Shown here piece after piece: positions 4,472-17,705 of a stretch of DNA of 64,000 nucleotides. Each line of letters begins with the position of its first letter. The first letter of the stretch is position 1. The DNA is taken from IMG/VR virus record IMGVR_UViG_3300017963_000233, one strand, 5' to 3'. The notes under the pieces were generated by a model. That model made no database searches. It was given only the letters and a program-made list of their open reading frames with translations, and had not been told where the DNA came from. The position numbers were made by a program, and so were the translations under genes. The DNA comes from a virus.

Positions 4472-4500
4472 CTATTAATATTTCATAAGATTTTTGTCAA
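4472..4500 (-). promoter_or_regulatory. possible sigma70-type promoter for the RHH/replication operon
   Basis: TTGACA at 4500-4495 followed by AT-rich TATTAATAG; -10 spacing not canonical. Confidence 0.4.
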
Positions 4501-4741
4501 GCAAAATATCATTCCTTATTGTTTTTAAAATATCGATAATATAAGTTCTTGCAATGCGGCTATCCGCACCGTCAATGACTTCCAATTTTTCATCGATGTA
4601 GGATATGGTATTTGATATGCGCCTTAACGCATCCACATTCCTTTGATGGAAACTTTCTTCGCTCTTATCTTGCAACAAGGCTTTGATTGTACCAAGGTGA
4701 TAATTTGTCACCTTCAATTGATCCACTATCTCTTTCATCAT
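4475..4741 (-). CDS. hypothetical protein
   Basis: GGAGAGGAG RBS before ATG 4741; helical. Confidence 0.6.
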   Translation of the reverse strand: MMKEIVDQLKVTNYHLGTIKALLQDKSEESFHQRNVDALRRISNTISYIDEKLEVIDGADSRIARTYIIDILKTIRNDILLDKNLMKY

Positions 4742-5898: not shown

Positions 5899-5961
5899 TT
5901 TCTCACCTCCTTTCTGATAGATTTCTAAGTGCCATAAAAGTTTATGGCACTTCAAAATATA

Positions 5962-7166: not shown

Positions 7167-7231
7167 ATTCCACCTCCTTTCAATCAGAATTTCTCGACAC
7201 CACAAGAAATTTCTCATGGTGTCTGAAAATG

Positions 7232-7942
7232 CTAATTGATATGTCTCATCGGCTGGCCGTTATGGTCTATAGGTCTGCTGATGGGAATCTTTTGCCCGTC
7301 ATTCATTCCGACATTGAAAGCGTGCCTGTCAACCTTCTGCGGTCCCTTTCTTTGTTTTCGATTCGGAAATGCCTCATTCATCGCCTTTTCAGCAAGATCT
7401 TTTTTGAAAATGACAAGGTCCTTTGTTTCCACATTTGACTTCAGTATTTCCTCCTTTCTCTTGTACATGTCCCTCAACCTTGTATTAATCGTAGTCATAA
7501 CGCCGCTTGCGTAAAAATACGATTGTTTCTTATTCATTTTCTCAGACCTTTGCTTGTTCATGATCCTCATTCTCAGATACCTGAAGAAATGAGCGATCAT
7601 CTCCAGGTCCTGCTCCGTTCCAAAAACTACAAATTGACGTTTTAGAGAATACTCCGCGTAGGACCTTACAGTTGAACATTCAAAGACACCGCATAAGGTA
7701 ACAAGCACCATCCCCTCCCACGTATAGTTGCCCTCAACATACTCATCGAACAAGGCCTTATTGACGATATCCATGATAGTGCCGTCTTTCTTTTTCTTTG
7801 CAATGACATCCATCATGGACATATCGTGAAGTGCGAGCAGTTCAGCGGCTTTTTGTTTTGCAAGTTCAGCCTCATGTGGGTTTGGAGATTCTCCCAACGC
7901 CATCAGTTTTTGGACCTTTGCAATGATTTCCTCTTTTGACAT
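7232..7942 (-). CDS. DUF2786-domain protein
   Basis: EEIIAKVQKLMALGESPNPHEAELAKQKAAELL is the characteristic DUF2786 N-terminal motif. Confidence 0.8.
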   Translation of the reverse strand: MSKEEIIAKVQKLMALGESPNPHEAELAKQKAAELLALHDMSMMDVIAKKKKDGTIMDIVNKALFDEYVEGNYTWEGMVLVTLCGVFECSTVRSYAEYSLKRQFVVFGTEQDLEMIAHFFRYLRMRIMNKQRSEKMNKKQSYFYASGVMTTINTRLRDMYKRKEEILKSNVETKDLVIFKKDLAEKAMNEAFPNRKQRKGPQKVDRHAFNVGMNDGQKIPISRPIDHNGQPMRHIN

Positions 7943-8030
7943 GATTTTCTCCTTTCACAAATAGTTTTGAGGATAACCCTCCCACATGGCACAAGAATTT
8001 CTCATGCCATGGTGGAGAATTACACTCATG

Positions 8031-8246
8031 TCACCTCATCACGGGAAACGACACGTCCCTCACATAATCATTTCCCTCATTTGTTATGATCTGCACAAAA
8101 TGATCCACATCCTGTGCAGGACATAAAAATCTCCCACTCCCACACCTCACAAGCAAAAGCTCCAATCTATTTTCCTTTATAATGTGCGGAAGATCATCCT
8201 TTGCGATAAAACCAAAATTCTTTCTCCTCAATTCTTTAATCGTCAT
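8031..8246 (-). CDS. hypothetical protein
   Basis: AAAGGAGGG RBS before ATG 8246. Confidence 0.6.
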   Translation of the reverse strand: MTIKELRRKNFGFIAKDDLPHIIKENRLELLLVRCGSGRFLCPAQDVDHFVQIITNEGNDYVRDVSFPVMR

Positions 8247-8257
8247 TATCCCTCCTT

Positions 8258-8725
8258 TCAGATAGACTCCACATCGTTTTGATATTCGCAAAAAAGATTT
8301 GTCATATACCGTTTAAACATTGAACACATGATACGGTGACAATACCTAACCATTGGTGAACAACCAGAAACGTCGAGTCTGGCCCAATGCGCGAATAGTT
8401 GAGCCACAAGTCGGTCGTCGGCTTTCACGTAAAATGAACTGCATTTAAGTGGCCACGCGGAAAAATCAAGATCCGCCCATCGGAGATTCGCCCCTCGGAG
8501 ATCCGCCCCTCGGAGATTCGCCCCTCGGAGATCCGCCTCTCGGAGATTCGCCCATCGGAGATCCGCCTCTTGGAGATCCGCCCATCGGAGATTCGCCCAT
8601 CGGAGATTCGCCCCTCGGAGATTCGCCTCTGCATCGATTGCAATTTCCACAGCGACTTTTAACGATTCCGCCTCGGCCTCGAAAATTATGTTTCTGGTAT
8701 AACGATTTTTAATCTCAAATTTCAC
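8258..8725 (-). CDS. pentapeptide-repeat protein
   Basis: GAGGAGG RBS before GTG 8725; 11 A(N/D)Lxx repeats; N-terminus KFEIKNRYT. Confidence 0.9.
8469..8630. repeat. 15-bp tandem repeat encoding the pentapeptides
   Basis: about 11 units of AGAT(T/C)CGCC(C/T)(A/C)TCGG. Confidence 0.9.
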
Positions 8726-8735
8726 ATTGACCTCC

Positions 8736-9044
8736 TCATTGCATTGTGCCGTTGAAGCTCTTGAGGAAGCTGATTGTGTTGTCTGGTAAAGGTTCAATAT
8801 ATTCGATGATTATGCTTTTCCCGCTATCATCGACTACCCTTTTCCTGAACAACGCACTCCCTTCCTCACTGTCGATGGTGATTGTCAAGTCCCACTCATC
8901 ATTTTCACTGACAATGACTTTGTTAATGTTGTACCTGTTCCCATCAATCTCCTCTTTGATGAGTTCAGATATGGAATTTGGATCAACTACTTCCATATCC
9001 GTCTCGATTTCCACATTAATCGAATACACAATTTTTCTCCTCAT
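8736..9044 (-). CDS. acidic hypothetical protein
   Basis: AAAGGAGAG RBS before ATG 9044. Confidence 0.65.
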
Positions 9045-9127
9045 ACACTCTCCTTTCACTTTTGGATTTGATTGCTTAAGCGATCAAGGATTGAGGTGAG
9101 AAATTTCTCACCTCGCACCTTCATAGC

Positions 9128-10066
9128 TTACGCCGCCCTTCTGAAATGTCCCTGAATAATAGAAGGGACTCTTTCAGAAAGCTCCGTTCTGACCATCTCC
9201 GATTCAACCTGATGTGTCAAGAACTGTGTGATGGCGCTGTTGAGGTCCCAGTACGTCGGAGTCTTGATGGATTTCAGATTTTCTTGCCCTCTCCCCATAA
9301 GGGGCAATTGAACGATCTCCGCTGCCCTTTTCTCGGAAAACCCGATTTCATCCATGATCTCTTGCACTCCAGTATCAGCCAATTTCTTGTGTGCCCACTT
9401 GTCCCACAATCCGATTTGTTCACTGAATTTGCCCATATAGTCTGTGATCTCTTGAACAACAGCCTCAGTGTTGAGGTTCTTCCTGTGCTTTTTGGACAAC
9501 TTCTGCATGGTCTTGAATGCGTACAGCCCGTTTGAACAGACCATTTGATGGGCACCAAACTTCACCTGAAATTCACTTGACAAGTCATAGCTATTCCTCA
9601 ATTCGACAGCAGGATTGATGCTTTCTTTGTGCGGTCCCACTTCGAATTTCACATCAGGAAACTTGACAGAGATCTTCAGCCTGGCACCTTCTTTGTAGAT
9701 GACAGGCTTTACTGTAGGCGTTCCATATTCAGGCAGTTCTGTCAATATGTTCTCCATCTGGGTCAATGCTTCCTCATGGGGCACGATCTTGTACTGTTTG
9801 GAAGCAAAGGAATAGAATGCGGTGTGCGGTACTGTCTCAAACGATTGAGTTTCCTTATTGAACTCGTCTACCACTGTATCACCCAACACCGCAACCCTGT
9901 CCTCGATGTGGACAGTGCTTGCCCCATCGACGTAGGCTGCGGGCCTGCTGTAGACATTGGGCCATCTGACATCGGGGAATCTTTCCCTGACCTTCTGCAC
10001 TTTTTCCTGTGCAAGTCGATGTCCCTCAATTCTCTCCTCAGCCATTTTTCTGATTTTCTCGTTCAT
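9128..10066 (-). CDS. DUF932-like protein
   Basis: SKQYKIVPHEE, LRNSYDLSS...FGAHQMVCSNGL, HR motif, YWDLNSAITQ all fit DUF932. Confidence 0.75.
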   Translation of the reverse strand: MNEKIRKMAEERIEGHRLAQEKVQKVRERFPDVRWPNVYSRPAAYVDGASTVHIEDRVAVLGDTVVDEFNKETQSFETVPHTAFYSFASKQYKIVPHEEALTQMENILTELPEYGTPTVKPVIYKEGARLKISVKFPDVKFEVGPHKESINPAVELRNSYDLSSEFQVKFGAHQMVCSNGLYAFKTMQKLSKKHRKNLNTEAVVQEITDYMGKFSEQIGLWDKWAHKKLADTGVQEIMDEIGFSEKRAAEIVQLPLMGRGQENLKSIKTPTYWDLNSAITQFLTHQVESEMVRTELSERVPSIIQGHFRRAA

Positions 10067-10152
10067 TTTTCTCTCCTTTCACAAAAGGTTATTTGATTGA
10101 GGCAATGCCTCGCATTGCGTATGATCGAAACCATACGCAATACGCGAAATTG

Positions 10153-10533
10153 TCAATCAGGAGATACAAAGAAAGGCTTGTCAGTTCCCTTCCAATAATG
10201 ACCTTTCTTTGTTCCCTTCTCATGCAATTCCCGCGGAGAAACGAACTTTTCATAATACCTATCGGAACCTCTGTTGACAGAATACAACTTGCCGTCTACC
10301 TCATTGCAGAATTCCAAATGGTTTTTATACAAATCATCGGTAAGCGCATCCTGCACCCCATGCAAATACGATCTTACCCAAGACGGCGTTCCTTTTGGCA
10401 TTCTTTCCAGAATTTTTAGTAATTTTTCATTCCTTTCCTCAGAAGTCATTTTGAAGATTTTACAGGAACTGTGGAGATCGTACAATCTTCCTTTGCCCTC
10501 AATTTTAATTTGGACCGCTCTTTTGATTCTCAT
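10153..10533 (-). CDS. hypothetical protein
   Basis: GAAAGGAG RBS before ATG 10533. Confidence 0.65.
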   Translation of the reverse strand: MRIKRAVQIKIEGKGRLYDLHSSCKIFKMTSEERNEKLLKILERMPKGTPSWVRSYLHGVQDALTDDLYKNHLEFCNEVDGKLYSVNRGSDRYYEKFVSPRELHEKGTKKGHYWKGTDKPFFVSPD

Positions 10534-10621
10534 TTTTTTCTCCTTTCGCAAAGGGTTATTTGATTGAGGCAATGCCCCACACTATGCATGACTTTCGCCA
10601 TGCATAGTATGTGAAATTAAT

Positions 10622-11059
10622 TCAATCACAATCTGGAGCTACAAACGAACCATCCGACACTCGGTAGACAGGGTAAGGGGCTTTCCCACTATCGAACCAA
10701 TCGTGGTCGAAACAATATGCTTTGGCACCAACTCCTTCCTCCGTCCAGTTTACCAAATACCCCGCTCCTGGAGCACAAGGTGAACAATACTGACACCAAG
10801 TGTAATATGGGGACTTTGTGATAAAAATATCACCATAATCGTCGGAACATTCCGCTTGTAGATCTTCATAATCTATATACCAAGATATGGGGTCAATGTA
10901 ATCTTCATCTTCATGGTCGAATTCTCCATAATTTGGTTGTGCTTCTTCGTACCATGCACTTCCGACTACATTATAGTTAATTACTCCATAATGAAACCCT
11001 TTGCCGTCCACATTGCTTTTGCCATGGGAATAATCAATTCCCGCATAGTCTGTTTTCAT
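10622..11059 (-). CDS. acidic, Tyr-rich protein with CxxCxPC motif
   Basis: GAAAGGAGAGG RBS; WCQYCSPCAPG. Confidence 0.7.
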   Translation of the reverse strand: MKTDYAGIDYSHGKSNVDGKGFHYGVINYNVVGSAWYEEAQPNYGEFDHEDEDYIDPISWYIDYEDLQAECSDDYGDIFITKSPYYTWCQYCSPCAPGAGYLVNWTEEGVGAKAYCFDHDWFDSGKAPYPVYRVSDGSFVAPDCD

Positions 11060-11071
11060 TTTCCTCTCCTT

Positions 11072-11311
11072 TCACATTGCATGTACCTCTTCCATTTTCT
11101 TTTCGAAGCACCTTTCACAATACCCGTGGCTCGGTTTATCTATCAAAGAGTGCCTCTTGTCGTACACAACTCCACATTCGCAACATACCACATCGATGCT
11201 ATAGAAATCCACAGCATCACACACAGGGCAATGCCATTTCTTTCCGTAATACATCGACGTACCACATTTTTTGCAAATATTTCTACCATTTTCGATATCA
11301 TCTATTACCAT
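11072..11311 (-). CDS. multi-Zn-ribbon small protein
   Basis: four CxxC pairs in 79 aa. Confidence 0.6.
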   Translation of the reverse strand: MVIDDIENGRNICKKCGTSMYYGKKWHCPVCDAVDFYSIDVVCCECGVVYDKRHSLIDKPSHGYCERCFEKKMEEVHAM

Positions 11312-11397
11312 ACTATTTTCCTTTCCATTTTATTTTAACACCCAAATGCGGGCATGAGGAAAATTTCTCACCTCATGCCCTTTTTCGATGTTAAAAT

Positions 11398-12117
11398 TTA
11401 ATTTTGTGTGGATGCCCACAGCTCCTCACTCTTTTTCCTTGAGCCAGGAGCCTTCTCATCTGAGAACTTGACAATTCTGGTCTCCTTGTCGATCACAACA
11501 TAGTAATCGAAAGGACAATACTTACGACTTATACCATCACTGATATAAGTCGTAGCGGTACTTTTCGCACCTTCAGGAAAAGCTGTCATGTACATATCGA
11601 CAAGCTGTTCCTTCGTGTACCTGCCCTCTTGGATCGCATTAGCGATCCATTGCTTCATACCGCTTTTCTTGCCACCACCAGATTTCTTTTTGCTCTGCCT
11701 CTTTTTTTCTGCTTCCTTTTGTGCCGCAAGCGCATTGCACAAAAGGAACCTTTCCTCATACATCTCCTTGCAATCCTTGTTGCAGATTGGAGAGTTGAGG
11801 TCAGGATTTGCAAACACACCGCAAAACAGTTCATTTTCCTCATCCCTGTATGCAGCGCACATCTCGTCCGTGATCTCTACCTCTGACTCTGAATTTTCTG
11901 CACTTTCCGATGGTTCAGGATCGGAAATTTCCGATGGTTCAGGATCCTGAGTGAACAAATGTGCAAATGCATCCTTTTTGAGGATCGGAGCATTATCGGA
12001 TTTGAGCTTGAGCCTCAACTCCGCAATCTCCTTTTTGGTCATTTTCTCCAACTCATCCGTCTTGATCGACGGATTCTCCTTGACCACTCGATTAATGATT
12101 TCTTGCTTTGTACTCAT
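11398..12117 (-). CDS. multidomain protein: acidic linker, Cys cluster, C-terminal winged-helix-like domain
   Basis: GAAAGGAG RBS before ATG 12117; DPEPSE duplicated (24-bp repeat); basic stretch then RYTKEQLVD...KSTATTYISD. Confidence 0.7.
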   Translation of the reverse strand: MSTKQEIINRVVKENPSIKTDELEKMTKKEIAELRLKLKSDNAPILKKDAFAHLFTQDPEPSEISDPEPSESAENSESEVEITDEMCAAYRDEENELFCGVFANPDLNSPICNKDCKEMYEERFLLCNALAAQKEAEKKRQSKKKSGGGKKSGMKQWIANAIQEGRYTKEQLVDMYMTAFPEGAKSTATTYISDGISRKYCPFDYYVVIDKETRIVKFSDEKAPGSRKKSEELWASTQN

Positions 12118-12206
12118 GATTTCTCTCCTTTCACAAAAGGTTATTGATTTGGAGCATAACCGCTCCACACATAGCATGAAAATTTCTCATGCTATGGTTG
12201 CAACAG

Positions 12207-12479
12207 TTACCATCCATAGTTTTTGTACGGAAAGGCCTCTTTCATCAAACTATTCCTGTCTTTTCGAGACAGTTTGTAAAATTCTTCCGCATCTGCTTTT
12301 GAAAGTCCACCGTGAAATTTAATTCTATCCGCATCTGTTACCATTTGGATGACTTCCTCTCTGGACATTGTTGCAGACTCATCGAGTTCACCATCCTCAT
12401 CGATGAGGCAATCAGCCCCGATTGCGGCCCATGTTCGATAAGCCGCCCGAATGACTCTTTCTTTAAATTCCTTATCCAT
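12207..12479 (-). CDS. hypothetical protein
   Basis: GAAAGGAG RBS before ATG 12479. Confidence 0.65.
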   Translation of the reverse strand: MDKEFKERVIRAAYRTWAAIGADCLIDEDGELDESATMSREEVIQMVTDADRIKFHGGLSKADAEEFYKLSRKDRNSLMKEAFPYKNYGW

Positions 12480-12495
12480 TTTCTCTCCTTTCACT

Positions 12496-12807
12496 TTAAT
12501 TTTTGATCGGATCTGTTTGGCTTACATGAAACACCGTAGCCATCCACGGCAAAGAGCGAGTGCGCTCAGGATCCTTTTTATCTTTTACAGTCCTGATCGT
12601 CCGCACCTTAACCCCATGTTCGCCGCGTCGCACTTGCCTTCCCTTCGCCTTCCAGGCATTGTAAGTAAAGACATTTTCACGTGGCGAAATTTCCGACTCT
12701 GGAATTCCCTTTCGAATGAATCCCTCATAGATCAGGGGATAATTCGAAAGTGTCTGTTGACTTTCCGCCCTTCTCAGAGCTTCCCTTTGGATTTCCTGTT
12801 GTGTCAT
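12496..12807 (-). CDS. ArdC N-terminal (DUF1738)-like ssDNA-binding domain protein
   Basis: FTYNAWKAKGRQVRRGEHG and TVFHVSQT match the ArdC-N signature; no metalloprotease domain. Confidence 0.75.
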   Translation of the reverse strand: MTQQEIQREALRRAESQQTLSNYPLIYEGFIRKGIPESEISPRENVFTYNAWKAKGRQVRRGEHGVKVRTIRTVKDKKDPERTRSLPWMATVFHVSQTDPIKN

Positions 12808-12890
12808 TTTTCATCTCCTTTCACTTTTTGTTACTGACAGCTAATGCCATCAACACATGGCACAAGAATTTCTCATGCCATGCATTGATA

Positions 12891-13016
12891 TCATTTTTTG
12901 CGAGGTGAACAATACAATACCTTTCCTACCATACGGAAGTTATAAGTCTTTCGCATGAGCATGGAAAGGTGATTGCATCTATACCAGATTTTCCCACCAA
13001 GATTCAGCTTTTCCAT
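12891..13016 (-). CDS. small basic hypothetical protein
   Basis: AAGGGAG RBS before ATG 13016. Confidence 0.5.
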   Translation of the reverse strand: MEKLNLGGKIWYRCNHLSMLMRKTYNFRMVGKVLYCSPRKK

Positions 13017-13169
13017 GACAATTTCTCCCTTCTTAAGAATTTCTGACCAGTGATGCTTCTCAAAAATCGAAAATTTCACAGCTAATTTTAACAGAGAGCG
13101 CATGGACTTTAGATATCCTATCCTACCCATTAACATTATGCGTCCATGCGCTTAAAATCGCTATTCCAT

Positions 13170-13553
13170 TCAGATTATCGCTTGCTTGTTAAAGCAAGTA
13201 TCCACAACCTTTCCGCAACTCGAACAAACAATCAATGTTTCTCCAGGAAATCCTGGAATATCTTCCAATCTGGGACCGCAACACCTTCGATATTTCCTTT
13301 CATATAGGTCCACAAAATCATTCGGATCTATACCAGTCATGTTTTTGAACATGAGATAAGGGAGAACCCCAAACCTTTTGCCATACAATCTTGGAATTTC
13401 TCGTCCGTTGATCGACAGCCAGCAGTCAAGACCACTATGGAAAACGATCATTTTGTCATTGATCTCCACAACGTATTCCTCATAACTGTATGGATCATGA
13501 CGGGGACCCTCGACTCCAGACTCAAGATCGATTGTCCTTTTTGTGATTTTCAT
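13170..13553 (-). CDS. hypothetical protein with C-terminal Cys motifs
   Basis: ATGA overlap with upstream gene; CC...CSSC. Confidence 0.6.
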   Translation of the reverse strand: MKITKRTIDLESGVEGPRHDPYSYEEYVVEINDKMIVFHSGLDCWLSINGREIPRLYGKRFGVLPYLMFKNMTGIDPNDFVDLYERKYRRCCGPRLEDIPGFPGETLIVCSSCGKVVDTCFNKQAII

Positions 13554-13819
13554 TGCACACCATCCGCTTTTTTGTGCATGGGGATTATTTTGATCCTCTG
13601 CACCTGTCCGCATTCCTGACAGACATCCTTGCACTGATTTTTCCCATGCCAATTTAGCCACAGAGCTTGACTCGTGCATTTCAGGCACTTGTGAGTCATG
13701 GTGTCCTTATCGAAATAGACACCTTGCGTTTTTTCAACATAATTCGTGCTTTCCCTTTCCGAGTCAAGCACTACTCTCCATTCATCTTTGCCATGTCTGG
13801 CAATATTCATGAGTCTCAT
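13550..13819 (-). CDS. hypothetical Zn-ribbon protein
   Basis: GAAAGGAG RBS; CLKC...CQEC. Confidence 0.6.
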   Translation of the reverse strand: MRLMNIARHGKDEWRVVLDSERESTNYVEKTQGVYFDKDTMTHKCLKCTSQALWLNWHGKNQCKDVCQECGQVQRIKIIPMHKKADGVQ

Positions 13820-13893
13820 TTTTCTCTCCTTTCACTTTGGATTTGATAACTCCACACATAGCATGAGAAATTCTCATGCTATGGTTGTAGCCA

Positions 13894-14100
13894 TCAAAGA
13901 ATATTTCCAAAAACGAAAGTACGATGGAATGCCTTGACTTTGCCAGTGGTAAACAAAGTCATAGCATCTTTAGGGGTTAACTTGAATCCGGTTGCTTTAA
14001 GGACTTTCAACCGGATATCAAATAAATCTCTTGCCGGAATCAATTGGCGATTGTGAAAAATTACATCGCCTTTTCGGGTGAAAATTCTATTTCGATGCAT
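13894..14100 (-). CDS. small basic hypothetical protein
   Basis: GAAAGGAG RBS, 68 aa. Confidence 0.6.
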   Translation of the reverse strand: MHRNRIFTRKGDVIFHNRQLIPARDLFDIRLKVLKATGFKLTPKDAMTLFTTGKVKAFHRTFVFGNIL

Positions 14101-14180
14101 GGTAATCTCCTTTCACATTTGGATTACAGAGCTAACTGCTCCACACATAGCATGAGATTCTCATGCTATGGTTGCAACAG

Positions 14181-14543
14181 TTATATCCTGATCGATACTA
14201 TCTTGCCTTTCGATTCTCTTTCCAGAATAAGAACCCTTGCATGATGATTTACAAACTGGTCGTTGTATGTTCTGTACCTGTACAAAACTACAGATTTCAC
14301 AGGGCAAGGCGTTTCAATGTATGGATGGTAATCTCTGTATCTTACCCATCTGCCGTTTGGACTTTTGATTAACTCAATTTCCTGATCGGTTTTCAATTTC
14401 ATTTTACTTTCGTCCACAGTCAAAGAGCGGAATCTTTTTGACTGTTGACCATTCATTAAATTTGCCACATATGGATTTCTCATGAATTGGTAAAGATCCT
14501 TTTTCCTTATTTCTTTTATATCCATTACTTTTTGTTCCATCAT
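14181..14543 (-). CDS. hypothetical protein
   Basis: GAAAGGAGAGG RBS within the duplicated leader; start ATG 14543. Confidence 0.6.
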   Translation of the reverse strand: MMEQKVMDIKEIRKKDLYQFMRNPYVANLMNGQQSKRFRSLTVDESKMKLKTDQEIELIKSPNGRWVRYRDYHPYIETPCPVKSVVLYRYRTYNDQFVNHHARVLILERESKGKIVSIRI

Positions 14544-14690
14544 TCCTCTCCTTTCACGTTTAATTTCTTCCATCCTACACTTCATGATCAAAAATTTCTG
14601 ACCATCAAGTGAAAGATGGAAAGAGTTGAACAAGCACACGGAGAAAGTGAGCGAAACCCATATGCAATCCAACTCTTTCCACTTCCTGCA

Positions 14691-14861
14691 TTATCTCTCA
14701 CAATTGAGATAATGCTCCTCTTCCGCACAGGTTGCCTCAACTGGACAACCAGTACATCTTTCCTCTAGGTTGTTTTTGATCTCCTCCATACATTCCCAAC
14801 AAGTAGGAGGGACCAACTCATGAATAGTCCCAGCTCCACACCGATGGCATCTTACTTTCAT
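14691..14861 (-). CDS. small Cys-rich protein
   Basis: Not in ORF track; AAAAGGAG RBS; MKVRCHRCG...CWEC...CTGC...C...C, 56 aa. Confidence 0.6.
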   Translation of the reverse strand: MKVRCHRCGAGTIHELVPPTCWECMEEIKNNLEERCTGCPVEATCAEEEHYLNCER

Positions 14862-14880
14862 CTCAATCTCCTTTTACTTT

Positions 14881-15177
14881 TTAGTGTTGGGCGACGAGGA
14901 CGCGCCCGCCGCGCCCATCGTCGTACCAAACCTTGTTGAATTTATGAACTACCTGATGAAACACAATCAGATAGCTCCACACCGCCATTGGACCAGTCAA
15001 CACGACTTCGGTCCTTTCATCGGCTGGAGTCGCATCAATGATCGATGCGACATTCCTGCCGACGATATTAGCAGCGTCGGCAGGAGAGGTGGTCAATGTC
15101 AATCGACCACCTACTTCTGTTACTTCGCATCCCTCGTAAAGGGATGCATTGCTCAATGCCATGTTAATCTCCATCAT
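14881..15177 (-). CDS. csx3: Csx3/Crn3-like cyclic-oligoadenylate ring nuclease (candidate anti-type III CRISPR)
   Basis: VVLTGPMAVWSYLIVFHQVVHKFNKVWYDDGRGGRVLVAQH aligns with the Csx3 core VVISGRGPIWLHCFLAHKYAH...VYDPRLGAVVVQSH (recalled A. fulgidus sequence). Confidence 0.7.
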   Translation of the reverse strand: MMEINMALSNASLYEGCEVTEVGGRLTLTTSPADAANIVGRNVASIIDATPADERTEVVLTGPMAVWSYLIVFHQVVHKFNKVWYDDGRGGRVLVAQH

Positions 15178-15395
15178 TCCTCTCCTTTCACGTTTAATTT
15201 CTTCCATCCTACACTTCATGATCAAAAATTTCTCACCATCGAAAATTTCTCAAGGAATTTCTGACGAAAATTTCTGACCATCAAGTGAAAGATGGAAAGA
15301 GTTGAATTATCACATGGGAAAGCGAGTATAAACCCATGTGTTGTCATTCAACTCTTTCCACATCTTTACTTCCACTGCATAAATCCTCTATCGTC

Positions 15396-15539
15396 AATAA
15401 AAATCATTGACGATAGTTGATTCATTGCTTCTTCCATAGAGGTGAAACACCCAATAAATATACTGTCTTGTGTATACCAGGGTGTAACAACTCCCGTTGG
15501 CCTTCCACTGCTGCTATAACACTCTGCAAACCATTCCAT
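15396..15539 (-). CDS. small hypothetical protein
   Basis: GAAAGGAG RBS before ATG 15539; 47 aa; 3' end overlaps hairpin 15388-15416. Confidence 0.4.
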
Positions 15540-15632
15540 TTTAGTCTCCTTTCACTTTTTGTGTTTGATGATAAAATACCATCAACACATAGCATGAGAA
15601 TATCCCATGCTATGTATTTATGCTATTCTATT

Positions 15633-15860: not shown

Positions 15861-15960
15861 AATTCTCTCCTTTCACATATTCGGCATATCACATATCACA
15901 TATCATGCATCATGCATCATGCATCATATTGATATGCCTATTGTTTCGCAATTTGCGTTC

Positions 15961-16059
15961 TGAATCATATTCACTAAATGAATCGTATTCACTAAATGAA
16001 TCATATTCACTAAATGAATCATATTCAGTGAATCATATTCAGAAAATGAATTGCATTCA
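15961..16059. repeat. tandem array of 13-bp palindrome TGAAT-N3-ATTCA, mostly 18-bp period
   Basis: copies start at 15961, 15979, 15997, 16015, 16029, 16047. Confidence 0.9.
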
Positions 16060-16116
16060 TTGCATACAAAAAAGCGCATTACAATTGTAATGCGCTTTTC
16101 AATCTGAAATGAATTT

Positions 16117-16277: not shown

Positions 16278-16864
16278 TTCCAATAACAGTATGCTTCGCC
16301 AATTAATTGTTAGGAACTAAGACATATTGAATTGATTAATTCTTTCTTGTCTCAGTTCTTGCGCTAATTGTACTTTCGATTTTGGAATGACATCTTCAAA
16401 ATGCAAAATGTCATTTGTTTTGTGTACTTTTCGTCCAAAAACATTTTTATAATATCGATCATTTTGACTATCGGCAAGATATGTGCTGATAGTCGAAACA
16501 GCGTATTGACTATCAAATATAAATAGCGATTGGTCGATTAGACTTTTGCGTGTATAACGTGCTTCAGCTATCTTTTGTTCTAAAAAGATGAGTAAAGCAC
16601 TTCGTTTTTTGCGCTTTGATCTGTTATGCCTAGTTCGCATGTTTTCTTTTTCAGAAACATGCTTTTTAGACACAACGTACCTACGATTTTCGTTCTTTAA
16701 ACGTGCATTATCAAGTGCGATGTTTTTATAATGTTGAATAATTTCACTTTTGGTCATTGACTCAAAGTCTATGACAATCTGATTTAACTCTTGAATATCT
16801 TTAATTCTATTATTCATTTGTATGCTCACTTTCATTTTATAAGCGAAGCATACTGTTATTGGAA
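16278..16864. repeat. perfect 22-bp inverted repeats flanking one gene
   Basis: TTCCAATAACAGTATGCTTCGC at 16278-16299 and its reverse complement at 16843-16864. Confidence 0.95.
16317..16835 (-). CDS. basic protein with winged-helix-like domain, paralogous to 11398-12117 C-terminus
   Basis: RYTRKSLIDQ...AVSTISTYLAD vs RYTKEQLVDM...AKSTATTYISD; start uncertain (16835 or 16817). Confidence 0.6.
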   Translation of the reverse strand: MKVSIQMNNRIKDIQELNQIVIDFESMTKSEIIQHYKNIALDNARLKNENRRYVVSKKHVSEKENMRTRHNRSKRKKRSALLIFLEQKIAEARYTRKSLIDQSLFIFDSQYAVSTISTYLADSQNDRYYKNVFGRKVHKTNDILHFEDVIPKSKVQLAQELRQERINQFNMS

Positions 16865-17705
16865 CAATGATGATGCAATAGGCATTCAATTGAATGCCTA
16901 TTGCATCTTTTTTTGTGAAAAGAGTGAAAAGAGTGAACGTTATAATCTGATATCAACTCTTATGTCATACTCGAAGTGTATTTATTGAATCGATTGAAGT
17001 CGTTTTTCGTTCGTGCTTCAGTATAATGCATTATACTTTGAACAAAATGCGCATTGCATCGGATCTAAAGATCGACTTAGCATGTCATATCGCATGATCA
17101 AACTATGTCAATGATCATTTTCATTCCTATTTGAATGAGCTATGCATCACTCATTCTTTAGGAATGATCGGACGATATCGCTTTTAAGTCATCGACGCCA
17201 AAAAATAAGTATCGACTTTTCAACTTGTTTTTGACATAAGCACAATTGGCTATATAGCCAATTTAATGATATCGATTATTATGCTACTCGACGCAATCAA
17301 TGTTTAGATCACTGCTAAAGTACTGATTAAATCAGTTTTCTACTTGAAACTAGCTTCGATGCCCAAAGTCGTTGACATCTTAAAATTGACCTAGACACCG
17401 ATTGTGTCTCATAACAACGTTTTATATGCGATACATTGATTAATAAGAGTCAAGACATACTCAGTCTATTAGGACTTTCACCTAATAGACATGTCTCATG
17501 AAGTATCGGTATTAAGACTTCTATCTTGACTATCTGAATAGACATAGTGCCTATATACGTAGCAATGATAATGCCAATATTAATAAGTTTTATTATATCA
17601 GCCCTAAAAAGACAATATATCCAATTATATCAACATGTTATATTCCAAAAAAATATTTTTTAAAAATAAAACACCAAAAGTAGCCTATTAAATCTTAATA
17701 AAGAA

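Follow-up and report, generated by a model that had tools for sequence, protein, structure and literature searches.

Inverted repeats that lie between phage genes close to ribosome-binding sites (RBSs), such as the promoter-early stem-loops (PeSLs) of T4 and the ESAS of mycobacteriophages, raise the question of whether they act as DNA or as RNA, which has usually been left undecided so far. We take up this question for the hairpins that punctuate the early operon of the virus record IMGVR_UViG_3300017963_000233 of IMG/VR, of which a stretch of 64,000 nucleotides was analysed (the window). It belongs to the ~85.7-kb genome of an uncultured siphovirus-like phage, recovered from sediment and seawater metagenomes, in which an HK97-type capsid protein, a tape-measure protein and a terminase are encoded. 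Paralogous copies in this phage and orthologous copies in its relatives offer unusually clean comparative evidence for selection at the mRNA level, and it is highly probable that the fold is selected on the sense strand, most simply in the mRNA. What is new here is the clear RNA-strand signature, together with the linkage of the hairpin to the upstream gene.

According to the gene calls, the minus strand carries all genes from ~15860 down to position 1. The first ~10 kb of this operon encode small proteins, mostly of unknown function, among which Pfam recognises ArdC-N-like, DUF932, pentapeptide-repeat and DUF2786/DUF7168 proteins; the accessory genes are followed by a helicase, a primase, a replication initiator, a cluster for 7-deazaguanine synthesis and a PolA-UDG fusion. 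An initial annotation had described at least 11 hairpins, each placed between a stop codon and the next RBS. Folding of all intergenic spacers of the minus strand yields 14 that are structured within 7167-15632 and a further one at 5899-5961. With the genes denoted g1, g2 and so on, the 14 are found at the junctions g1/2, g2/3, g4/5, g5/6, g6/7, g8/9, g9/10, g11/12, g12/13, g14/15, g15/16, g16/17, g19/20 and g20/21; three of them (g2/3, g4/5 and g8/9) are larger composite elements, and the other gene junctions span 0-26 nt and hold an RBS only. Dinucleotide-shuffle z-scores range from -3.3 to -7.5 across the 12 spacers tested.

In the usual unit the stop codon is followed after 10 nt by a hairpin of 12 bp (hp1) and then by a smaller one (hp2); an A-rich linker leads on to the Shine-Dalgarno (SD) sequence GUGAAAGGAGA and the start codon. 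Medians computed over 32 simple units of this phage and its relatives give a spacer of 84 nt in which hp1, with a stem of 12 bp, a loop of 4 nt and an energy of -16 kcal/mol, begins 10 nt past the stop codon; the end of hp1 is separated by 32 nt, filled by hp2 and the A-rich linker, from the GGAG, which lies 7 nt before the start codon. The SD is perfect over 8 nt and of the GAAAGGAG type. About one third of the units reach at least 19 bp or show a lower stem with an internal loop. Other details of the initial annotation are likewise found in place, namely the second small hairpin with the shared pre-RBS tract (10074-10108, close to 10541-10576) and the UUCG (10113) and GAAA (10579) loops of two divergent copies.

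Selection on this fold can be followed in several ways. On a plain MAFFT alignment of 29 units RNAalifold predicts an 11-bp hp1 in which 11/11 pairs show double changes. A second alignment, which was itself fitted to the structure by a covariance model, has 85.9% of its cells paired, as against 63.5% after column shuffling and 32-48% with slid partners, and displays double changes at 17/17 pairs. Four orthologous spacers of two related contigs (L003 and L011, introduced below) are 86.7% identical, whereas the flanking genes are 61.5% identical at four-fold degenerate sites (p = 9e-11) and 85% identical at first and second codon positions; since the spacers exceed the four-fold sites, they are under purifying selection. 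Among the changes in the stems of orthologues, nine are compensated on both sides, 14 are kept via G-U and 12 break a pair, the latter mostly near apices and in the most distant orthologue pairs.

The strand on which the fold acts is indicated by the mismatches. The stems of the spacers contain 52 G-T against 8 A-C oppositions, as compared with 54:36 in chance hairpins of coding sequence on the same strand (Fisher p = 3e-4), with a hairpin finder that penalised both mismatches equally. Several of these wobbles are common by descent, so that independent events are fewer; at 25:5 the binomial p is still 0.001. A paralogue in L003 differs from its twin at five positions, every one of which yields a G-U pair, and 4/11 of the tetraloops are GNRA or UUCG (p = 0.001). 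The deviations at 7196, 7985, 12170, 12856 and 15587, which the initial annotation had read as strand-specific wobbles, are indeed G-T or T-G on the minus strand and thus A-C on the plus strand. Its central claim, that these are structures at the level of the RNA or sense strand, is supported by covariation, G-U asymmetry, RNA-type tetraloops and purifying selection alike; covariation in homologues, the absence of which had been named as telling against it, was looked for and is present.

The relatives were found with the DUF932 protein, which led to the contigs L003/L004 (47% identity), L005 (49%), L006 (50%), L008 (69%) and L011 (45%). The punctuated layout recurs in L003, L005, L008 and L011 with stems of different sequence, and the short contig L006 has two or three shorter units. 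The covariance model (R1), which comprises hp1 and hp2, recovered the training units as well as unseen ones, including four of 42-72 bits in L011, a contig that had not entered the building of the model; the search across related phages that had been proposed at the outset was therefore successful on held-out material. Within the window, full-model matches of at least 33 bits are confined to the sense (minus) strand of 7167-15624, and weaker ones of 22.0, 21.2 and 19.5 bits, also on the minus strand, fall at the g4/g5, g10/g11 and g1 leader junctions. R1 had one match only in ~92 kb of distant loci, a weak one (25.4 bits) without a clear hairpin in L012 (36% identity), with none in more distant relatives. 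It had a single match of 22 bits in 240 kb of pattern-preselected bacterial DNA and none in the replication and deazaguanine module. Rfam gave no matches at gathering thresholds and, below threshold, only generic hairpins of the miRNA-precursor type. One gene call in L005 (3997-4683) reads through an in-frame TAG at 4651-4653, where the real gene stops; the 93 nt that follow are a canonical hp1-hp2-RBS unit (R1 44.9 bits).

To which gene, then, does a hairpin belong? The element 3' of the DUF932 gene, with its outer 4-bp helix, conserved 3x3 internal loop and an inner stem that carries compensatory changes, is orthologous in the window, L008, L003, L011 and L005, whereas the genes downstream of it mostly lack detectable homology among those phages; the hairpins upstream of DUF932 vary together with the upstream gene. 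In L011 the homologue of the L003 gene 7523-7957 is placed after the homologue of 8326-8841 and not before it, and each of the permuted genes retains its own 3' hairpins, with the alignment breakpoints falling within the ~20-35-nt pre-RBS tract common to all units. Between conserved anchor genes the gene content varies among relatives. Relative to L008, g15 and one spacer constitute an indel in the window, both flanking spacers of which contain the pre-RBS tract, and within the window near-identical copies of spacers extend from immediately behind the stop codons of unrelated genes as far as the start codon. These alignments show that the hairpin belongs to the upstream gene and, judging by the breakpoints, exchange takes place in the conserved pre-RBS tract. 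Because the hairpin stays with its upstream gene and the breakpoints lie in this tract, the evolutionary unit is SD-ORF-hp1-hp2, where ORF stands for open reading frame. The link to gene swapping that had been suggested earlier is thereby upheld, since the units coincide with cassette-swap junctions in the relatives.

The individual units, together with the head of the operon, are as follows.

15861-16060, minus strand: operon head, with five 18-bp tandem repeats at ~15959-16044, each with the 13-bp palindrome TGAATATGATTCA.
15571-15631, minus strand: g1/g2, extended hairpin with core hp1 at ~15588-15614 and apex UGGGAUAUU; 7-bp hp2 and RBS down to 15540; z -7.5; R1 71.9 bits.
15178-15365, minus strand: g2/g3 composite, nested long hairpin 15297-15356 (8-bp inner stem, 14-nt loop); four tandem (G/C)AGAAAUU at 15227-15276; RBS.
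14544-14690, minus strand: g4/g5 composite, near-duplicate of the g2/g3 spacer; nested hairpin 14621-14677; second long hairpin 14558-14631 with one CAGAAAUU; RBS; z -5.2.
14101-14180, minus strand: g5/g6, hp1 14146-14170 (11 bp, apex GAGAAUC); hp2 14129-14141; GUGAAAGGAGA RBS; R1 58.1 bits.
13820-13893, minus strand: g6/g7, hp1 13857-13883 (12 bp); hp2 13838-13854; RBS; R1 61.1 bits.
13017-13169, minus strand: g8/g9 composite, 11-bp stem 13097-13152 around a 34-nt loop; copies of GUGAAAUU, CAGAAAUU and GAGAAAUU at 13020-13078; weak RBS.
12808-12890, minus strand: g9/g10, 19-bp hp1 12849-12889 (core 12856-12882) with four G-U; hp2; RBS; z -6.3; R1 61.4 bits.
12118-12206, minus strand: g11/g12, hp1 12170-12196; hp2 12150-12167; mini-hairpin 12127-12140; RBS; R1 68.5 bits.
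11312-11397, minus strand: g12/g13, hp1 11350-11380 (10 bp, 11-nt loop UGAGAAAUUUU) within an outer helix; weaker RBS GGAAAGGAAA; z -6.8; orthologue L008 393-484.
10534-10621, minus strand: g14/g15, hp1 10578-10611 (15 bp, GAAA tetraloop, two G-U); hp2 ~10567-10577; shared pre-RBS tract; RBS.
10067-10152, minus strand: g15/g16, hp1 10111-10144 (15 bp, UUCG tetraloop, two G-U); hp2 ~10099-10110; pre-RBS tract as in g14/g15; RBS.
9045-9127, minus strand: g16/g17, 3' element of the DUF932 gene, outer 4-bp helix and 3x3 internal loop around hp1 9093-9114; hp2 9068-9087; RBS; orthologues in five relatives.
7943-8030, minus strand: g19/g20, hp1 7985-8011 (two G-U) nested in an outer helix; hp2 7969-7981; RBS; z -5.7.
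7167-7231, minus strand: g20/g21, hp1 7196-7223 (two G-U); unpaired GAGAAAUU at 7188-7195; RBS; without hp2.
5899-5961, minus strand: outlying unit, 11-bp hairpin 5927-5952; RBS; without hp2.

In three of these units (12127-12140, 10542-10554 and 10075-10088, minus strand) CCUUU lies 4-5 nt upstream and is able to form five base pairs with AAAGG in the SD; the resulting mini-hairpin may act as a gene-specific translation brake on g12, g15 and g16.

At the head of the operon (15884-16060) a sigma70-like promoter (15951-15923) lies directly downstream of the TGAATATGATTCA repeats and is followed, in the g1 leader, by (GATGCAT)x3 and (GATATGT)x3. It is the only promoter-like site that the promoter scan detected upstream of the hairpin-bearing genes; the region holds no more sigma70-like sites than shuffled sequence does, and at the spacers no such site recurs. 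The stretch from hp1 to the SD is filled by hp2 and the linker, in agreement with the earlier remark that most of the spacers leave little or no room for a promoter. Related GAAT..ATTC palindromes also precede the operon in L003 (4560-4948), and by its layout the repeat array looks like an operator or iteron array for some regulator. A further recurrent site consists of the -35 box TTGACA and, after 15-17 nt, an AT-rich hexamer that resembles a -10 box. It is found in the window (4473-4501, minus strand), L003 (14097-14125) and L006 (2996-3030), immediately before the small RHH/DUF6364 gene, which the replication genes follow, and is a possible second promoter at which the hairpin-punctuated operon would end.

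The apices and a recurrent word form a second layer of conservation. The statement that nine copies share an apex holds approximately, in that exact UGAGAAAU occurs in only six and the other three are variants (for the window, exact TGAGAAAT in six copies, TGAGAAT in two and TGGGATAT in one). Counted over simple units, the UGAGAAAU apex is present in 10/12 of this phage as against 5/24 in relatives; since it is common here and rare in the family, the data do not call for a dedicated protein that binds the apex. The word GAGAAATT occurs 20 times in the window, about three times the 6.4 expected, and 13/20 occurrences are concentrated inside spacers of 7167-15632. GAGAAAUU makes up most apices in this phage and few in relatives, and in three phages it also recurs as arrays of three to four unpaired copies 3' of a long hairpin. 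The composite elements concerned are homologous: a loop of 14-16 nt closes the long hairpin, behind which come at most four GAGAAAUUUU copies and then the RBS. They are found at 15178-15365 and 14544-14690 in the window, as a duplication on both sides of the g3-g4 cassette, and at L003 5294-5560 and L005 3082-3264. The 14-nt loop UUUACUCCUAUUUU, which contains the SD-complementary CUCCU, is identical in L003 and L005 though the stems differ. In L003 and L011 the GAGAAAUU word also forms the SD-to-start spacer, GGAGAAAUU, and an SD-like 4-mer is present in 7/36 apical segments, some loops of relatives showing GGAGG or AGGAGA. A factor that recognises the GAGAAAUU word, be it a protein or the 30S subunit, is possible on this pattern.

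We propose that the spacers are RNA-level modules which provide the upstream cistron with a protective or processing hairpin at its 3' end and the next one with a standard translation start, and which serve as homology patches as a side effect; we would put the chances of this proposal at about even. One long early transcript from the promoter region near 15950 would carry all spacers. The first half of each module would serve the upstream cistron: a stable hp1 ~10 nt past the stop codon, just beyond the footprint of the terminating ribosome and usually accompanied by hp2, would remain folded while that cistron is translated and is positioned like a barrier to 3' exonucleases. The second half, an unstructured A-rich linker and the invariant strong SD GUGAAAGGAGA 7 nt from the start, would serve the downstream cistron. 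It is established that 3' stem-loops shield mRNA from 3' exonucleases and that RNase J1 is blocked by a 30S subunit on the SD; in Gram-positive bacteria, ribosomes that bind a strong polypurine SD stabilise the mRNA against decay from the 5' side (PMC4113751, PMC5737220). If the single-stranded linker were cut by an endonuclease or decayed stochastically, the upstream mRNA would thus be left with a 3' hairpin cap against 3' exonucleases, and the downstream product would be guarded and translated via ribosomes at the strong SD in a STAB-SD-like manner. For the linker, RNase Y and RNase E are candidates in view of their preference for AU-rich single strands, RNase Y preferring G/A (PMC11780869); the long units, a minority, may be substrates of RNase III. 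Being self-contained, the hairpins would also keep neighbouring coding sequence from pairing with the SD, which would render the expression of each cassette autonomous, and the near-identical pre-RBS tract doubles as a homology patch for swapping SD-ORF-hairpin cassettes, as is seen when the relatives are compared.

Several points weigh against this proposal and against the fold on which it builds. Processing, 3' ends and effects on stability are all inferred from the sequence, and the RNase set involved (E, or Y with J1) depends on the host, to which searches of INPHARED and GTDB gave no pointer. In distant orthologues 12 stem substitutions break pairs as compared with 23 that keep them, and the sense-antisense difference in folding energy of whole spacers, at -4.9 kcal/mol, is marginal relative to the coding baseline of -2.5 (p = 0.076). 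Single-stranded DNA tolerates G-T as well, so that a fold of the sense DNA strand is conceivable and formally still admissible. Finally, the conserved GAGAAAUU and the composite spacers are left unexplained by a purely structural role.

Among the other explanations, cleavage of each hairpin by host RNase III into mono- or oligocistronic mRNAs with hairpin ends, as at classical sites of the T7 or SP82/SPO1 type, seems unlikely to us. The intercistronic position within an early operon is what it predicts, and it gains from the 19-29 bp, or the lower stem, internal loop and upper stem, of g1/2, g9/10, g16/17, g19/20, L008 962 and L003 7411, and from the 3x3 internal loop that the DUF932 3' hairpin keeps while its stems covary. 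With a median stem of 12 bp, however, most units remain below two helical turns, the targets mapped in Bacillus subtilis are extended duplexes that are often long-range (PMC11780869), and hp2 and the constant distance to the SD are not accounted for; the analogy with T7/SPO1 RNase III sites drawn in the initial annotation therefore fits some units, while most stems, at ~12 bp, fall short of the roughly 20-bp classical duplex. Stable hairpins after most genes could also be transcriptional attenuators, that is, factor-dependent or U-tract-less terminators or pauses at which read-through would set the level or the timing of expression along the operon, whether or not a phage antiterminator takes part, and the composite spacers could be regulated sites of this kind. 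We hold this to be very unlikely, as no U-tract follows the hairpins, unlike the phage's own canonical U-tract terminators, which lie near 16070-16098 and 16872-16907 outside the operon, hp2 comes directly after hp1, no antiterminator homologue was identified and, with 14 attenuators one after another, too little transcription would reach the distal early genes. Intrinsic terminators were rejected on the same ground, given that the stems have no U-tract 3' of them and hp1 is followed by a UGUGGAG-type sequence or by hp2; the only spacer hairpin listed by the terminator scan is hp1 of g1/g2, continued by hp2 rather than by a U-run, whereas plain U-run sites are outside the operon. Least probable of all, to the point of being nearly dismissible, is a role as duplex-DNA palindromes that act as stoperator-like operators for a phage repressor. 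Mycobacteriophage stoperators are intergenic and oriented, and many apices are perfect palindromes (e.g., GAGAAAUUUCUC), but the stems diverge between copies and phages with pairing kept, the mismatches are strand-asymmetric, RNA-type tetraloops are enriched and the genes scanned include no integrase or CI-like repressor.

The comparisons of gene order bear on a further possibility, according to which the units are mainly DNA-level recombination modules, kept for the shuffling of SD-ORF-hairpin cassettes in the manner of T4 PeSLs or, if they fold as single strands, of attC, with the RNA structure incidental. Differing gene content, the permuted orders of L011 and L003 with breakpoints in the pre-RBS tract, the indel of g15 and its spacer relative to L008 and the near-identical spacers that run from stop to start codon beside unrelated genes are all in its favour. 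Homology patches, by contrast, need no hairpin, covariation or G-U bias, the breakpoints are in the linker and RBS tract outside the hairpins, and spacers at orthologous positions are under strong purifying selection. Moreover, no recombinase domain or IntI is among the Pfam hits or in the scans, which covered ~74 of 85.7 kb of the genome, and attC R''/L''-L'/R' boxes (RYYYAAC, GTTRRRY) were not seen by eye in the units; we consider these modules an improbable main function. Comparably doubtful, if marginally less so, is a sequence-specific factor that binds the GAGAAAUU or SD-like apex and the GAGAAAUUUU arrays and times or shuts off early expression in a RegA-like manner, or an element that mimics a translation initiation region. 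It draws on the excess of GAGAAATT, on the arrays of three phages, on the shared 14-nt loop and on the words at starts and apices, although the apex motif is found in few units of relatives, the loops are otherwise unconserved and counts of GA-rich words are inflated by the purine-rich sense strand. Besides the 30S subunit, candidates are g12 (11398-12117, minus strand) and the ORF 16317-16835 (minus strand), paralogues with 26% identity (E 2e-9) that are both kept in L003 and L005. The g12 family is also present in L008 and is kept in 4/4 relatives in which the position is covered, and an ~80-aa C-terminal domain common to the two proteins is confidently modelled as a winged helix by AlphaFold. 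The two have no Pfam or PHROGs family, and Foldseek with the g12 model against PDB gave only non-significant winged-helix matches (best E ~0.8), of DNA-binding and RNA-binding types alike, which leaves it silent on RNA binding. A wider idea, which we rate as unlikely, would join these strands: an integrase-free cassette platform for accessory, likely anti-defence genes, each with its own stability and translation signals and exchanged by homologous recombination at the pre-RBS tract, in which GAGAAAUU or SD-like apices and arrays would be a common on/off handle for a phage factor (e.g., g12 and ORF 16317-16835) or the 30S subunit.

Other candidates were rejected. A mimic of CRISPR repeats (RNA anti-CRISPR) does not agree with stems that differ between copies and a variable distance from hairpin to GAAAG; N4-type hairpin promoters were discarded as no phage RNA polymerase occurs in the ~74 of 85.7 kb examined, and for Frpo-type single-stranded DNA promoters the elements are far too short.

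The genomic setting contributes further observations. The 7-deazaguanine cluster (contig L024 13820-20303, beyond window position 1) comprises QueD/PTPS, a QueE-like radical SAM protein, QueC, QueF and GTP cyclohydrolase I, and is followed next by a fusion of DNA polymerase A with a UDG domain; its gene content suggests that the phage modifies guanines in its own DNA. The pentapeptide-repeat protein (8258-8725, minus strand; Pfam E 2e-20), whose gene contains near-identical 30-nt DNA repeats at ~8480-8620, is by its family a possible DNA mimic among the early genes. A 98-aa ORF at 14881-15177 (minus strand) has no Pfam match (E <= 0.01) and no PHROGs match. Database searches placed the phage apart: a near-identity search of INPHARED with the window had no match, IMG/VR searched by protein and two DNA patterns held no close relative, and GTDB genomes searched by protein had no match. 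The same genomes searched by DNA pattern gave 32 single matches, one of which R1 scored weakly (22 bits), as expected by chance and without pointing to a host. Against phages, the major capsid protein had no match with tblastn and the helicase only matches of ~24% identity. A look-up of sequencing runs for this DNA listed none made from RNA. Contig L004, the contig SDBT01012133 of a metagenome-assembled genome, is 99.85% identical to L003 from position 2126 on, and its upstream part (1-2130) holds GC-rich Wood-Ljungdahl-type genes (CdhD/pterin-binding, DUF166, CooC-like). Where L004 and L003 diverge, the contig may be chimeric through assembly or may cross the junction of a prophage or the phage terminus, and this would be the sole host clue.

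How, then, do these spacers relate to systems already described? In integrons, attC is likewise a structured, imperfect and strand-specific palindrome 3' of each promoterless, co-oriented cassette, with structure kept more than sequence; here, however, the junctions are in the RBS tract rather than in the hairpin, and the SD is part of the unit. The RNase III sites of T7 and the processing sites in the early mRNA of Bacillus phage SP82 (or SPO1) share the position of hairpins between genes of a phage early polycistron, which in our case has 14 spacers, co-oriented genes and a single promoter-like region. In both settings the first genes of the early transcript include anti-restriction functions and processed products would end in protective hairpins. 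They differ in that the known sites have ~20 bp with a bubble, compared with mostly ~12 bp here, and in that the present units add a second hairpin, a fixed distance to an invariant SD and at least 14 copies with strong covariation. REP and BIME elements and the stem-loops termed 'positive retroregulators' are stable, intercistronic or 3', devoid of a U-tract and able to keep 3' exonucleases off the upstream mRNA (PMC4113751, citing Wong and Chang 1986). The features of such 3' protective stem-loops recur here in the median of -16 kcal/mol, in a start 10 nt beyond the stop codon and in the association with the upstream gene; those host elements are not coupled to a standard translation start, whereas we describe a phage-specific family that travels with cassettes.

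The T4 PeSL is, like the unit studied here, a composite, repeated intergenic stem-loop followed by SD and start codon (PMC2839356, PMC4122927), and is found between small accessory ORFs of a hyperplastic early region at indel or swap junctions between relatives. It has a sigma70-type promoter between stem-loop and SD, which is missing here, so that the membership in this class considered at the outset does not hold; covariation specific to the RNA strand is a feature of the present family. The SAS/ESAS of cluster K mycobacteriophages combine a conserved asymmetric, SD-containing motif by start codons with an upstream imperfect inverted repeat at a variable spacing (PMC3203893, PMC12699233), and they too accompany non-structural genes only, in one orientation, and are conserved at orthologous genes. 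This is a likeness of architecture only: their 13-bp consensus is GGGATAGGAGCCC as compared with GUGAAAGGAGA here, the arms of ESAS follow a 17-bp consensus per subcluster whereas our stems vary freely and covary, and the phage lineage is unrelated. The function of SAS/ESAS was still without experimental verification in 2025 (PMC3203893, PMC12699233).

Altogether, the likeness in function lies with the T7/SP82 processing sites and the REP-type stabilisers, and that in architecture and evolution with PeSLs and SAS/ESAS. The combination suggests a general rule of design by which the accessory and anti-defence cassettes of phages remain expressed on their own however they are shuffled, and the covariance model R1 can be used for finding the same architecture elsewhere.

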